A stretch of DNA of 64,000 bases from positions 12,507-76,506 of the forward strand of contig JACQKW010000013.1 in assembly GCA_016204385.1 (NCBI GenBank), in the 5' to 3' direction. The first letter of the stretch is position 1. Every line of letters starts with the position of its first letter. The notes under the pieces were generated by a model that was not told where the DNA came from, searched no databases, and saw nothing but the letters and a program-made list of their open reading frames with translations. Of this stretch, positions 9,383 through 61,041 are shown piece after piece. The position numbers and the translations under genes are program-made. Source of the DNA: Candidatus Liptonbacteria bacterium. Lineage in GTDB: Bacteria > Patescibacteriota > Minisyncoccia > UBA6257 > 2-01-FULL-56-20.

Positions 9383-9521
9383 ACCCCCACACCTAACGTG
9401 GAGGTGTATTCACCTCGAAGCCCACACAATTCTTCACTACTCGTTGTTTTGGGGCATACCCTGTTTCAAGCAGATAACGCAGAATACCTTTTGCTTCGCG
9501 CTCCCCGTTAGGTGTGGGGGT
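9383..9521. repeat. 16-bp perfect inverted repeats flanking a 107-bp segment upstream of the giant gene
   Basis: acccccacacctaacg (9383-9398) and cgttaggtgtgggggt (9506-9521). Confidence 0.85.
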
Positions 9522-29289: not shown

Positions 29290-29619
29290 TTATTTATTTT
29301 TCCAAAGCTCGCGGAGAATCCGGCATGGTTCCACGATCCTCGGATCAGTGATTGTATAGTTGGCATTGAGCCCGTCTCTACGCACGGTGACCAGCCGCGC
29401 GTGGCGCAAAAGTGCTAAATGTTGGGATACATTTGCTTTCGGCAAGCTAAGGATTTCGATCAGTTGCTCCACGGTGCGTTCCCCGTACTTTTTGAGTATA
29501 TTCAAAATTTCAAGCCGTTTAGGATTGGCAAGGATTTTATATATTTCTGCATTTCGCTCGTAGGTTGTTTTTGGAAATGGAGATTTCACCCCGTTAGAAA
29601 TTTTTGCTGTAGTAGTCAT
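29290..29619 (-). CDS. ArsR/SmtB-family metalloregulator
   Basis: ILANPKRLEILNILK...VSQHLALLRHARLVTVRRDG. Confidence 0.85.
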   Translation of the reverse strand: MTTTAKISNGVKSPFPKTTYERNAEIYKILANPKRLEILNILKKYGERTVEQLIEILSLPKANVSQHLALLRHARLVTVRRDGLNANYTITDPRIVEPCRILRELWKNK

Positions 29620-29670
29620 ACCTAAATTATTGACCCGTTTGTAACGATGTATAATTTCTAACGGGGTTTC

Positions 29671-37261: not shown

Positions 37262-37649
37262 TTACGCTGCCGCCCCACCCAGCGTCATTTTTTCAAAAAA
37301 TGGTGTTGGGTGGAGCGGCCGTGGTGACCTCCTAAAACTGTTTGTTTTGAATGAGTGCTCTCCGACCGCTCCGCTATCAGTATAGGACGTGCGGAGAGGT
37401 AGGCAAGCAGCTGTGAAAAAAACCCCGCCCTCTCTGCACACGATCGGGGAAGGCAACAGGCGTGTACGGCTGTCCATCGCCAGACTTCCTTACAATCACG
37501 CGCGTAGAGGGCGGGGCCAAACAGAAGGAGGTAAACAGTCTTTAAATGAATACTCAAAGACTATTTGCGCTCATTCGAAGCAAGTATACCACGGCATAGG
37601 TACTCCGGTCAACCCCCCGCCCATGCATAGGCGGGGGGTTGCGTGCCCG

Positions 37650-40455: not shown

Positions 40456-40792
40456 GATACCGCCTTTTAAAAAGCTTAGCAATATTGCCTCTCTCGCACT
40501 GCCCCGAACACCTTGGGGGTTATAGGATTGACCAAAACGCATGCCGGTATAAAATGGAATCCCCACGGGCTTACGCCCGTGGTTCCATCCGTCGCGAGCT
40601 TCGCTCGTCTCGCTCTCATCCCCGCCTTCACAGGCGGGGTCTTCTCGCTTAGGATAAAACCCAGAACACCGCCGCACGCGCCTTTCTCGATAGCCAAGCT
40701 GCGGCGGCGCACGACGCCCAGGACTCCCTTCGTCCTGGGCGATTTATTTCAGTCTGTGCTCCCATCAAGATTTGTCCGCCGCTTTCCAATCA

Positions 40793-40826
40793 TAAAGTCA
40801 TCTTAACGATCGTTAAGATGACTTTA
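40793..40826. repeat. perfect 34-bp palindrome with ACGATCGT core
   Basis: taaagtcatcttaacga|tcgttaagatgacttta. Confidence 0.9.
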
Positions 40827-40895
40827 GTATAAGTTCCGCCGCGGGAAAACTGCTGGGGCAAGCAAAACTGACGCAAGAATCAGTCCGTTTTCTTG

Positions 40896-41145
40896 CAGCG
40901 CATACGGGAATCGAACCCGTGTTCCAACGTTGATCCCGTATAAAAATTTGTGTTGTGTGTACCGCTAACCGGATTCGAACCGGTGTTCCAGCGTTGAGAA
41001 CGCTGTGTCCTAGGCCAGACTAGACGATAGCGGCATAAATCAAGAACACTCTAACACAAATTTTATACGGGACAAGGAACGTGGCGCCTGCCCCGCACCG
41101 AGCTTCGCTCTGGTGCGTGGGTCCTAGCCACTAGACGAATGCGCC
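40896..41145 (-). other. composite locus: tRNA-like 5' part and 3' part separated by an inverted-repeat-bounded insert containing tRNA-Glu
   Basis: The 5' part GGCGCAT-TC-GTCT-AGTGGCTA-GGAC (41145-41121) and the 3' part GAAC-ACGGG-TTCGATT-CCCGT-ATGCGCT-G (40924-40896) have acceptor strands that pair 7/7 with one G.U. The inverted-repeat arms are at 41053-41084 and 40924-40954. Confidence 0.6.
40960..41034 (-). tRNA. tRNA-Glu (anticodon CUC)
   Basis: GCCGCTA-TC-GTCT-AGTCTGGCCTA-GGAC-A-CAGCG-TTCTCAA-CGCTG-GAAC-ACCGG-TTCGAAT-CCGGT-TAGCGGT-A. Full cloverleaf, no encoded CCA. Confidence 0.9.
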
Positions 41146-41236
41146 ATAGCAAAAATACTATAACGTAGTTTTACTACGGGTCAAAGAATTGTGCTGATGC
41201 CAGGCAACCGTACAGAGAGAAATGCCAACCCCGCGC

Positions 41237-41593
41237 TTATGCCCAGCCCAAAGGCTTGTAGCCGCTTGTACGCGGGGCGGAGACAATGAGTATTTCAAGA
41301 GGTTTTTTGCCTGTGTTTATCACCGTGCGCTTCGGTCGAACGTTTACACGGACGAATGTTCCTTCGGAGACAGGATGCTTCTCGCCATCAATCACCGCCA
41401 CGCCCCTGCCGCGCAGGACGACGAAAACCTCCTCTTGATCCCGATCGATCTCGTCATGTTCCGGAATCCGATCGCCAGGCTTGATCGTTACCATGTTCAT
41501 CCCGAATGACTTCAGGTTAAGAGACCTTCGCACAAGCGACCATCTGCCGTTCTTTTTGAATTTTCCCTTCCGTACGATGTGAAACTTCGCCAT
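41237..41593 (-). CDS. cupin-domain protein
   Basis: MNMVTIKPGDRIPEHDEIDRDQEEVFVVLRGRGVAVIDGEKHPVSEGTFVRV (cupin motifs 1 and 2). Start at MAKFHIV preferred. Confidence 0.7.
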   Translation of the reverse strand: MAKFHIVRKGKFKKNGRWSLVRRSLNLKSFGMNMVTIKPGDRIPEHDEIDRDQEEVFVVLRGRGVAVIDGEKHPVSEGTFVRVNVRPKRTVINTGKKPLEILIVSAPRTSGYKPLGWA

Positions 41594-60786: not shown

Positions 60787-60817
60787 CTAAATTACATAGC
60801 GTCTATTTCTATATGTC

Positions 60818-60967
60818 AAGCGTTCGTAATGGTTCAATAGCTTGGAACTCCGACGTTTCGGTCGGAGTCCGACCTCGCATCCTGCGAGCGTCGGGCCTCT
60901 GACCTGTCGCGTGTGAACGGAGCGCTCTGCTATTGAGCTCCGACGTTGCAGTCGGGGCTAAACGCCC
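60818..60967 (-). pseudogene. tRNA-Val-like gene interrupted by CCGAC/GTCGG hairpins (D stem 10/11 and anticodon loop 37/38), T arm not recognisable
   Basis: GGGCGTT-TA-G[CCCCGACTGCAACGTCGGAG]CTC-AATAGCA-GAGC-G-CTCCG-TTCACA[58 nt, 60911-60854]T-CGGAG..., aligned by eye to the intact tRNA-Val. Confidence 0.6.
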
Positions 60968-60969
60968 GG

Positions 60970-61041
60970 TGCGCGTTGCAGGGATCGAACCTGCCACCTC
61001 TCCGATGTGAACGGAGCGCTCTGCCACTGAGCTAAACGCGC
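60970..61041 (-). tRNA. tRNA-Val (anticodon CAC)
   Basis: GCGCGTT-TA-GCTC-AGTGGCA-GAGC-G-CTCCG-TTCACAT-CGGAG-AGGTG-GCAGG-TTCGATC-CCTGC-AACGCGC-A. Confidence 0.9.

Follow-up and report, generated by a model that had tools for sequence, protein, structure and literature searches.

A tRNA-Glu gene broken by palindromic inserts encloses an intact tRNA-Glu(CUC) in a Candidatus Liptonbacteria contig

Structure of the nested tRNA-Glu locus

The window analysed here is a 64,000-nt stretch of one metagenome-assembled genome (MAG) contig of groundwater origin, assigned to Candidatus Liptonbacteria (candidate phyla radiation, CPR; Paceibacterota), and coordinates without a contig label refer to this window. 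On its minus strand, at 41145-40896, lies a tRNA-Glu gene in three pieces, separated by two inserts of 35 nt and 143 nt, the larger of which is a cassette that carries a complete second tRNA-Glu between inverted arms (Table 1). All the elements that the original prediction had listed from the letters alone are present at the minus-strand positions given for them, including the extra hairpin of about 35 nt in the 5′ part. The outer acceptor strands, GGCGCAT and ATGCGCT, pair at 7/7 positions with G1.U72, as proposed there, and the third piece supplies the TCAA of the anticodon loop, the stem 3′ strand CGTTG, the variable loop, the T arm, the acceptor 3′ strand and the discriminator G. The smaller insert reads CCAC-GCACC-A-GAGC-GAA-GCTC-GGTGC-GGGG with the tail CAGGC. 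The arms of the 143-bp insert, which contains no open reading frame (ORF), form an inverted repeat of 20/21 nt with one extra A; this repeat, earlier described as about 20 bp and extendable, lengthens to about 28 bp in the predicted RNA fold.

The minimum-free-energy RNA fold of a 261-nt stretch has a predicted energy of -111.1 kcal/mol (z = -6.9), and none of 200 shuffled sequences was as stable (0/200). The outer acceptor stem, the outer T arm, the hairpin, the helix of about 28 bp and the inner cloverleaf are formed together in this predicted structure. A promoter-like site upstream of the outer tRNA, P1, had 10/12 promoter matches in the scan, where 0.4 sites were expected in shuffled sequences, and it is likely the promoter of the entire nested unit. 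A second site within the cassette, P2, had 8/12 matches and fell under the scan threshold. The region upstream of the outer gene, with P1, and the region upstream of the inner tRNA, including the left arm, are 72% identical over 39 nt. The hairpin GCAAGAA/TTCTTGC, which had been read as terminator-like, failed the terminator scan. Separately, a 34-nt perfect AT-rich palindrome, TAAAGTCATCTTAACGA/TCGTTAAGATGACTTTA, occurs at 40793-40826, about 70 nt downstream of the outer tRNA, and may serve as a bidirectional terminator.

Table 1. Features of the nested tRNA-Glu locus in window coordinates
Feature	Coordinates	Strand	Content or basis
Promoter-like site P1	41184-41157	-	TTGACC-16-TATAGT, upstream of outer tRNA
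Outer tRNA-Glu, piece 1	41145-41121	-	GGCGCATTCGTCTAGTGGCTAGGAC; acceptor 5′ strand and D arm, positions 1-25
35-nt palindromic hairpin element	41120-41086	-	Between tRNA positions 25 and 26
Outer tRNA-Glu, piece 2	41085-41077	-	G26, anticodon-stem 5′ strand CCACG, loop TTC; positions 26-34; ortholog alignment
143-nt insert (cassette)	41076-40934	-	Between anticodon positions 34 and 35
4-nt filler CTTG	41076-41073	-	Cassette border
Promoter-like site P2	41075-41048	-	TTGTCC-16-TAGAGT, weak
Cassette left arm	41072-41053	-	TCCCGTATAAAATTTGTGTT; inverted repeat
18-nt spacer	41052-41035	-	AGAGTGTTCTTGATTTAT; contains second hexamer of weak P2 site
Intact inner tRNA-Glu(CUC)	41034-40960	-	ARAGORN and Rfam RF00005
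5-nt spacer CACAC	40959-40955	-	Direct reading
Cassette right arm	40954-40934	-	AACACAAATTTTTATACGGGA; inverted repeat
Outer tRNA-Glu, piece 3	40933-40896	-	TCAA-CGTTG-GAAC-ACGGG-TTCGATT-CCCGT-ATGCGCT-G; positions 35-73

Identity and integrity of the inner and outer tRNAs

The inner gene, predicted from the outset to be a canonical tRNA-Glu(CUC), was called as tRNA-Glu(ctc) by ARAGORN and scored 57.5 bits against Rfam RF00005 (gathering score 29). The interrupted outer gene, for which the intron mode of ARAGORN and Rfam had been put forward as checks, was not called as it stands: with introns of up to 300 nt allowed at the default score, ARAGORN reported only the inner tRNA, and with the score threshold lowered to 70% it returned only spurious calls on the native sequence. 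Rfam gave no call for the outer gene at E <= 10 within 40700-41400, and in the same search no known RNA family, Intron_gpI (RF00028) included, was matched in the inserts. When the inserts (35 + 143 nt) were excised in silico, which joins the halves as had also been advised, ARAGORN called a 73-nt tRNA-Glu(ctc) at default thresholds. The predicted joined sequence is GTGGCTAGGAC-GCCACGTTC-TCAACGTTGGAACACGGG (the third segment also given as TCAACGTTGGAAC); its acceptor stem pairs 7/7, its D and T arms are intact, and its anticodon stem CCACG/CGTTG has a single C28xU42 mismatch, in place of the bulged U proposed earlier.

The anticodon of the outer gene had been read as CCU, which would make it a tRNA-Arg. 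ARAGORN accepts such a joining, but the orthologous and nested copies place TTC and TCAA together in the loop: in the alignment to orthologs, TTC ends piece 2 and TCAA starts piece 3 (CCACG-TTC ... TCAA-CGTTG), giving the loop TTCTCAA and the anticodon CUC. Because both copies read CUC, the outer gene is, on this homology, also a tRNA-Glu(CUC) and redundant with its own cargo. The resemblance between the two copies in the window, like the tRNA call on the joined pieces, goes well past anything that chance would produce. The outer 3′ piece is 80% identical to the inner 3′ half over 40 nt, the outer 5′ end is 84% identical to the inner tRNA over 19 nt, and the copies differ by compensatory changes at acceptor pairs 2, 6 and 7 and at T-stem pair 51-63.

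The restored cloverleaf bears on one of the explanations offered in the original prediction, namely that of genuine intervening sequences. In this case the inner tRNA would be freed by RNase P and RNase Z, the hairpin and the helix insert would be excised, and the exons would be either ligated or held together as a split tRNA, so that the locus would yield two different tRNA-Glu(CUC) by means of a protein-dependent, archaeal-like tRNA intron system. The predicted precursor fold, with its acceptor stem, T arm, long helix and inner cloverleaf, and the compensatory pair differences between the outer and inner copies speak for such a route; the redundancy of the outer gene and the lack of a group I signal in Rfam speak against it. 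Nor was a bulge-helix-bulge motif (two 3-nt bulges and a 4-bp helix) seen at the borders in the window and in the nested locus of contig L086 by inspection only, the bulge geometry in L086 being the reverse of that motif. Together with the evidence from related loci and from the hairpin family given below, we consider this explanation unlikely.

Orthologous loci downstream of murF

The gene order mraZ-rsmH-ftsL-ftsI-murF-[tRNA]-tpiA-SIMPL-gtrA-murB is conserved in related Liptonbacteria/Paceibacterota contigs, which allowed the comparison of related genomes that had been recommended. In L007, L010 and L013 one plain tRNA-Glu(CUC) occupies the gap after murF, which suggests that a single plain gene is the ancestral state of the locus, and in L018 (GCA_040960625.1) and L019 (GCA_016204335.1), both recovered as MurF relatives, nested tRNA-Glu genes are found at the same place. 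The window MurF is 100% identical to HY435_01500 and its best non-self match is 63% identical; a scan of genome contigs for close relatives gave only a 51%-identical MurF on a contig that ends before the locus, and the window cupin ORF, as delimited, matched no record.

In L019 the outer gene, which matches the plain gene of L013 at 95% identity, is interrupted at three places: an inverted-repeat cassette with an intact tRNA-Glu(CUC) lies in the D loop, the hairpin known from the window lies at 25/26 (32/35 identical), and another hairpin lies in the T loop. The outer gene of L018 is 88% identical to the plain gene of L010, and its D arm is cut by a cassette bounded by TCCCG...CGGGA. The cargo of this cassette is an intact version of the window outer gene (86% identity, with the same acceptor stem and T arm), and piece 1 of the window is identical to it apart from a 1-nt difference in the D loop. 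The window cargo, in turn, is 95% identical to the plain tRNA-Glu(CUC) of L007 at the syntenic locus. This pattern of identities among cargos, outer genes and plain genes indicates that cargo and host are different alleles, and that a gene found as cargo in one genome is the broken host gene elsewhere. With a foreign allele as cargo, the compensatory differences described above need no selection and are equally well explained without intervening sequences.

A chimeric assembly path through k-mers common to the tRNA genes of co-occurring species could in principle imitate nesting in a MAG contig such as this one, and the inner 266 nt lack independent confirmation, since contigs end at 41088 and at 40822 in the two independent Logan assemblies made from the source groundwater samples (those behind SRR12113383 and SRR12113384). 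However, the assemblies end at 41088 because this position lies inside a multi-copy hairpin, and 40822 lies inside the 34-nt perfect palindrome, so these ends were not accepted as a sign that strains differ or that the contig is misassembled. From a chimeric join one would expect a hybrid tRNA rather than nested copies with inverted arms, and here the outer halves around the insert still pair throughout the acceptor stem. Moreover, the same architecture is present in NCBI MAGs and in JGI and ENA contigs from different studies, and the 5′ junction of L019 is seen again, independently, in the Logan contig L020. An assembly artefact is therefore regarded as highly improbable.

Two further observations concern the flanks of these genes. 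In L010 (9341-9435) the plain tRNA-Glu(CUC) is preceded by a palindrome with 21-nt arms of CCCCCACACC, the right arm abutting the tRNA 5′ end, and its 51-nt loop holds a promoter-like sequence resembling P1 and P2 of the window; this suggests that tRNA 5′ ends are hot spots for palindromic elements, or that the elements could carry promoters. A third, older tRNA-Glu shell around the outer gene, as would be left if the locus had once resembled that of L018, was also considered and rejected, since alignments of type-II tRNA-Glu to both flanks were no better than those of shuffled sequences; a weak 10/13 inverted match connects the P1 spacer with 40851-40839.

A dispersed family of hairpin elements

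The 35-nt hairpin has its sole copy in the window at this locus. A search with the pattern GCACCAGAGCNNNGCTCGGTGC in JGI metagenome contigs, mostly from groundwater and sediment, found it in more than 120 contigs among the matches listed, as well as in one viral contig with unrelated flanks. The copies have stem ends CCC[CA]...[GT]GGG with covariation and a 5-nt tail CA[GTA]GC. Those at 25/26 of other tRNA-Glu and tRNA-Ala genes are 31-33/35 identical to the window hairpin. Copies at 43/44 of tRNA-Ile and tRNA-Ala have the opposite orientation, and others interrupt orphan Leu and Thr fragments in the D or T loop or lie in 5S genes. The hairpins therefore occur in either orientation relative to the tRNA, which argues against their being intervening sequences.

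Protein-coding genes harbour the same element. Thirty-two of the 126 listed copies lie in ORFs that read through them in frame, and 22 of these 32 share one frame, which encodes PSTRA[EK]LGAG[LP]VPHRN[EK]VSGAG in a two-hairpin form or only its first ten residues (encoded peptide, PSTRAELGAGLVPHRNEVSGAG). The hosts include PNPase, UvrB, IF-2, H+-PPase and PheT. Where at least 300 nt were open on both sides, 14 copies were read through and 2 broke the frame, both of the latter in contexts that are not CPR-like. The preserved reading frame indicates that copies within ORFs remain part of the transcript, and a dispersed hairpin that is read in frame in housekeeping genes points to selfish DNA rather than to a spliced intron. 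On this point the intervening-sequence explanation of the original prediction is weakened, as the family is evidently retained in the messages of housekeeping proteins.

The two-hairpin form, 66 nt long, is in frame in L039, L040, L046, L092, L102 and about 25 other loci, and its hosts also include TatD-like and thiolase-like genes. IF-2 orthologues differ in the form that they carry at the same site, which adds 10 residues in L091 and 22 residues in L046. A variant hairpin, CCCCAGTAGC-AGAGC...GCTC-GCTACGGGG, with the same CAGGC tail, interrupts a broken tRNA-Pro(CGG) at 25/26 in L024 (7540-7590) and L098 (3860-3900); the common site and tail imply that the hairpins form a superfamily. No Rfam family was matched by the hairpins or arms in L086, L122 and L039.

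Recurrence of same-kind nesting

About a dozen further loci, all fetched through the hairpin search and thus selected by the presence of the hairpin, have a broken gene that encloses an intact one of its own kind in the same orientation; because of this selection, frequencies among them are biased. They comprise Ala(CGC) and Pro(CGG), each in L024 and L098, Ala(UGC) in L122, Ile(GAU) in L086, Arg(UCG) and Arg(UCU) in L078, Val(CAC) in L010, Glu(UUC) in L036, and 5S rRNA in L052, L088 and L116. In the fetched loci 25/89 tRNAs are adjoined by fragments of the same type, Thr, Leu and Lys are represented by half-gene relics, and orphan halves occur in L098 (a 5′ half), L024, L056, L029 and L126. 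A similar situation may be seen in the window itself, where tRNA-Val(CAC) (61041-60968, minus strand) is followed directly by the degenerate 5′ part of a second tRNA-Val, GGGCGTTTAGC/CCCGACTGCAACGTCGG/AGCTCAATAGCAGAGCGCTCCGTTCACA (region 60800-61041), which is interrupted and followed by CCGAC...GTCGG hairpins and lacks a matching 3′ acceptor strand; this is a tandem decayed relic and not a nested gene. These orphan halves give some support to the view, also raised in the original prediction, that the locus is recombination debris, which is nevertheless only partly right.

The outer tRNAs that were tested are well preserved. All seven outer tRNAs tested (7/7) were called by ARAGORN at default thresholds after in-silico excision, and three of them (L018, L086 and L122) have flawless cloverleaves with perfect stems. 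Such near-perfect outer genes speak for genuine intervening sequences. The insert positions observed, 22/23, 25/26, 34/35, 35/36, 37/38, 43/44 and 53/54, which we take to resemble non-canonical archaeal intron sites, count in the same direction, as does the apparent placement of the nested tRNAs of L086 and L122 in an rRNA operon spacer, where they would be co-transcribed; in L122 a 23S rRNA start lies about 2.4 kb downstream, and in L086 the placement follows from the Ile-then-Ala order alone. On the other side stand the orphan halves and the decayed outer copies, with C28xU42 in the window and C50xC64 in L019, and the Ala-type outer genes of L024 and L098. In these two Ala(CGC) loci the intact gene reads CGCAT, but each of the three outer 3′ halves has CGAGT in its place, so that joining would place the anticodon CGA on a body with the alanine identity pair G3.U70, that is, a mis-decoding tRNA.

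The closely related contigs L098 and L024 also differ in the order of the pieces at tRNA-Ala(CGC), with X5′(hairpin) - Y5′ - X intact - Y3′ in L098 (6045-6420) and X5′(hairpin) - Z intact - X3′ - Y3′ in L024 (9885-10165). The nested 5S rRNA loci (L052, 400-800; L088, 1700-2150; L116, 400-800) have inner genes of 71-82 bits in Rfam and the same kinds of arms, plus the GCACC hairpin and other hairpins, and the outer 5S gene of L052 has lost conserved segments. L116 further contains, at 1373-1566 on its minus strand, a sub-threshold group I intron match inside a 23S rRNA gene (31.6 bits against a gathering score of 50, E = 9e-5).

Cassette arms and the geometry of the inserts

The cassette arms belong to families that recur around different cargos. 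Arms of the form CCCG[TC]A[TC][TA]AAAATTT flank the cargos of the window, L024, L086 and L122 (tRNAs) and of L116 (5S rRNA), and arms of CCCGTAYTAAAATTT flank Glu, Ala, Ile and 5S cargos in unrelated contigs. Further families, CCCCGTTAGA and CCCCCACACC, are present at dozens of loci and are also common as plain palindromes at non-tRNA sites, including 29589-29666 and 9384-9520 of the window. Occurrence at many non-tRNA sites had been named as a sign of an ordinary miniature inverted-repeat transposable element (MITE), and this is what was found for the hairpin and the related arm families; the exact arm of the cassette is single-copy in the window, where no second copy of the right arm was detected within 3 mismatches. 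Like a MITE, the cassette has terminal inverted repeats and related ends at multiple unrelated sites.

The position of the inserts is regular. The cassette sits in the loop of a 5-bp stem of its target and the hairpin element at the base of the same stem, and the tails of the two face each other 12-13 nt apart at seven loci (window 41076-41121, L086, L116, L122, L052, L088 and L024). This composite occurs in either orientation relative to the target, with the cargo always co-oriented with it. The filler CTTG reads CAAG on the plus strand and thus resembles the CA..G tails of the hairpin elements, as judged from the borders compared in L086, L116, L122, L052 and L024.

In the debris view no mobile element is involved: errors of replication or repair, in the form of microhomology-mediated template switching or duplication, would have occurred locally at a highly structured and highly transcribed gene, and the copies would later have diverged. 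Both cassette junctions lie on microhomologies between the loop TTCTCAA and the promoter-like TTC(T/C)TTG(A/T)CCCG, the TTC of the 5′ junction being in register with P1 and the TCAA of the 3′ junction being the reverse complement of TTGA; the resemblance between P1 and the left arm, the rearranged halves by which L024 and L098 differ, and the common orphan fragments are likewise in keeping with such errors. However, the inner and outer genes belong to different lineages and match plain genes or cargos elsewhere, and hence are not recent in-situ duplicates. The same arm families surround unrelated cargos in unrelated contigs, the hairpin remains 31-33/35 identical between genomes in which MurF identity is as low as about 60%, and the cassette-hairpin geometry is repeated in the seven loci. 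We therefore hold this origin to be doubtful, and rank it below intervening sequences.

Two candidate signals were rejected. Leader/trailer complementarity does not hold as a general property of tRNA genes, being present in only 10/72 tRNAs (2.3 expected), nearly all ten of them nested units. An asymmetry of G.U versus C.A mismatches between the strands of the arms, taken as a sign of selection at the RNA level, had no consistent direction in six cassettes by inspection.

Other palindromes of the window have C-rich/G-rich ends as well. At 29589-29666, 14-nt arms of CCCCGTTAGAAATT enclose a 50-nt loop holding TTGACCCGT...TATAAT; at 9384-9520, 15-nt arms of CCCCCACACCTAACG surround 107 nt; at 2004-2052 there is a CCCCTCACTTATG hairpin; and at 37423-37516, between murB and gtrA, 11-nt arms of CCCCGCCCTCT enclose a 72-nt loop. 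Solo CCCCCACACC arms also occur, and the remaining sites listed are 37613-37638, 23213 and 40159. The CCCCGTTAGAAATT and CCCCCACACCTAACG arm families recur in dozens of other CPR contigs.

A proposed origin by palindromic DNA insertion

We favour, with a probability of roughly 0.6, the explanation that palindromic elements were inserted at the DNA level, one of them with a replacement gene, and that the outer gene is a relic while the inner gene works. Among the readings raised at the outset, that of an inverted-repeat miniature element carrying a tRNA into the anticodon region of another tRNA gene is the best-supported description. The decayed and orphan copies, the redundancy, the hairpins kept in mRNAs and the foreign-allele cargo place insertion at the DNA level first, RNA intervening sequences second, template-switch debris third and artefact last.

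The events would have proceeded as follows. A resident tRNA-Glu(CUC), at a single locus downstream of murF, would have been broken by two palindromic DNA insertions: a 35-bp hairpin element of the dispersed family would have entered between positions 25 and 26, and the 143-bp cassette, whose arms enclose a complete tRNA-Glu(CUC) of another sequence lineage, between 34 and 35. The disruption of an essential single-copy gene would be tolerated because the insert brings the same isoacceptor. The nested unit is probably transcribed from P1 as one precursor, in which the long helix would form and may provide an RNase III site; RNase P and RNase Z would then release the inner tRNA, with RNase III possibly assisting on the helix, and the outer pieces would be discarded, serving only as leader and trailer. 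Repeated rounds of such insertion would produce the Russian-doll loci and the orphan halves.

Several observations weigh against this explanation. The cassette lacks a target-site duplication, its borders (CCACGTTC CTTG ... TCAACG) showing the 4-nt filler and no direct repeat; no transposase or integrase was identified, although no search aimed at transposases was made. The cassettes are almost only inside cognate genes, and of the 10 tRNAs whose leader and trailer are complementary over at least 9 nt, 8 are nested. Such a restriction is not predicted by random insertion and selection alone and suggests either homology-directed spread or an in-situ origin; homologous recombination via the conserved outer halves after transfer between lineages would explain it. 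Nor does the explanation account for how a cassette comes by the matching gene. Furthermore, the outer genes are in better condition than would be expected of pseudogenes that died long ago, a difficulty that recent insertion would remove, and the outer tRNAs of L086 and L122 even encode CCA. Finally, with P2 as weak as it is, expression of the inner tRNA probably requires transcription to run through the outer pieces.

Comparison with known systems

Short palindromic, non-autonomous repeats in many copies are known in bacteria as Rickettsia palindromic elements (RPEs), repetitive extragenic palindromic (REP) sequences and bacterial interspersed mosaic elements (BIMEs), and Correia-type MITEs; RPEs and REPs are not known to carry cargo. 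RPEs, reportedly described by Ogata et al. in 2000, insert in frame in housekeeping protein genes and in stable-RNA genes and are apparently tolerated there, and the CPR hairpin behaves likewise. The CPR elements are, however, much shorter (35 nt single, 66 nt double), and no sequence relation is expected; they have C-rich/G-rich termini with a CA..G tail and prefer the tRNA sites 25/26 and 43/44, and one version of them, unlike RPEs and REPs, carries a complete gene in its loop.

Integrative elements (phages, integrative and conjugative elements and genomic islands) also insert in tRNA genes and restore the gene via a copy in attP. They span kilobases and encode an integrase, and what they renew is the 3′ part of the gene alone, with a short direct repeat left behind. 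The CPR cassette is similar in that insertion is made harmless by a replacement tRNA sequence and a displaced fragment of the old gene stays behind. In contrast, it is 143 bp long without an ORF, brings a whole tRNA, interrupts the anticodon or D region and keeps the old gene present as two halves, and neither an integrase gene nor an attL/attR repeat of the tRNA 3′ part was found with it. Another partial parallel is given by the intervening sequences of bacterial 23S rRNA, which are removed by RNase III without religation, the fragmented 23S rRNA still functioning. There, too, a helix-bounded insert interrupts a stable-RNA gene, and the long helix of the window is a plausible RNase III substrate; but a tRNA cut between 34 and 35 would not function, so the analogy covers the release of the inner tRNA and not a function of the outer one.

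In archaea, tRNA genes may carry multiple or non-canonical introns or be split or tri-split, and introns have transposed in Thermoproteales (summarised in PMC10714607, where Fujishima et al. 2009 and 2010 are cited). The CPR loci share with them several inserts per tRNA (D arm, 25/26, anticodon loop and T loop), halves joined by complementarity, and related inserts across tRNAs. The archaeal elements are cut by EndA at a bulge-helix-bulge, for which the CPR borders showed no counterpart by inspection; moreover, the host here is bacterial, the archaeal introns are not known to hold a second tRNA copy, and hairpins related to the CPR inserts are translated in proteins. Within the same phylum, group I introns have been described in tRNA genes of Patescibacteria, at anticodon-loop positions including 35/36, where they hide the tRNAs from annotation tools (PMC13011429). 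The anticodon-loop insertion and the missed annotation are common to both cases. Group I introns are ribozymes of about 200 nt or more with a conserved core that RF00028 detects (the Intron_gpI model has 253 positions), whereas the window insert consists of a long helix and a tRNA and lacks a match to this model at E <= 10. In the literature on CPR tRNA introns, on bacterial nested or split tRNAs and on palindromic elements of Patescibacteria, we found no description of tRNA or 5S genes nested in their own broken copies, nor of these CPR repeats.

Implications for CPR bacteria

For annotation, the consequence is that standard tools overlook the outer genes and do not distinguish the working copy, which bears on CPR tRNA and 5S inventories and on claims of missing or duplicated tRNAs. 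It is conceivable, if improbable, that CPR bacteria possess a protein-dependent, helix-guided excision and ligation of stable RNAs, in which case the outer tRNAs and 5S rRNAs would be functional multi-intron genes whose introns encode a second copy. If true, bacteria would have a new class of tRNA intervening sequences, which would count as their third kind of intron and for which the locus supplies exact junction sequences, and the archaeal multi-intron and split tRNAs would have a first counterpart in bacteria.

If palindromic insertion at the DNA level is the true explanation, the locus is a compact route by which selfish DNA enters an essential single-copy gene, supplying a replacement for the gene that it destroys. 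The elements are then small palindromic selfish DNA of a known sort, here with a gene-replacement cargo. The hairpin family adds a peptide of 10 or 22 residues to IF-2, PNPase, UvrB, PheT and H+-PPase, as a CPR analogue of the Rickettsia palindromic elements. The rule of same kind and same orientation, across more than 10 tRNA species and 5S rRNA, together with the chain of cargos and hosts, points to an ongoing replacement of stable-RNA alleles between CPR lineages, which would be relevant to gene transfer in organisms thought to be streamlined.

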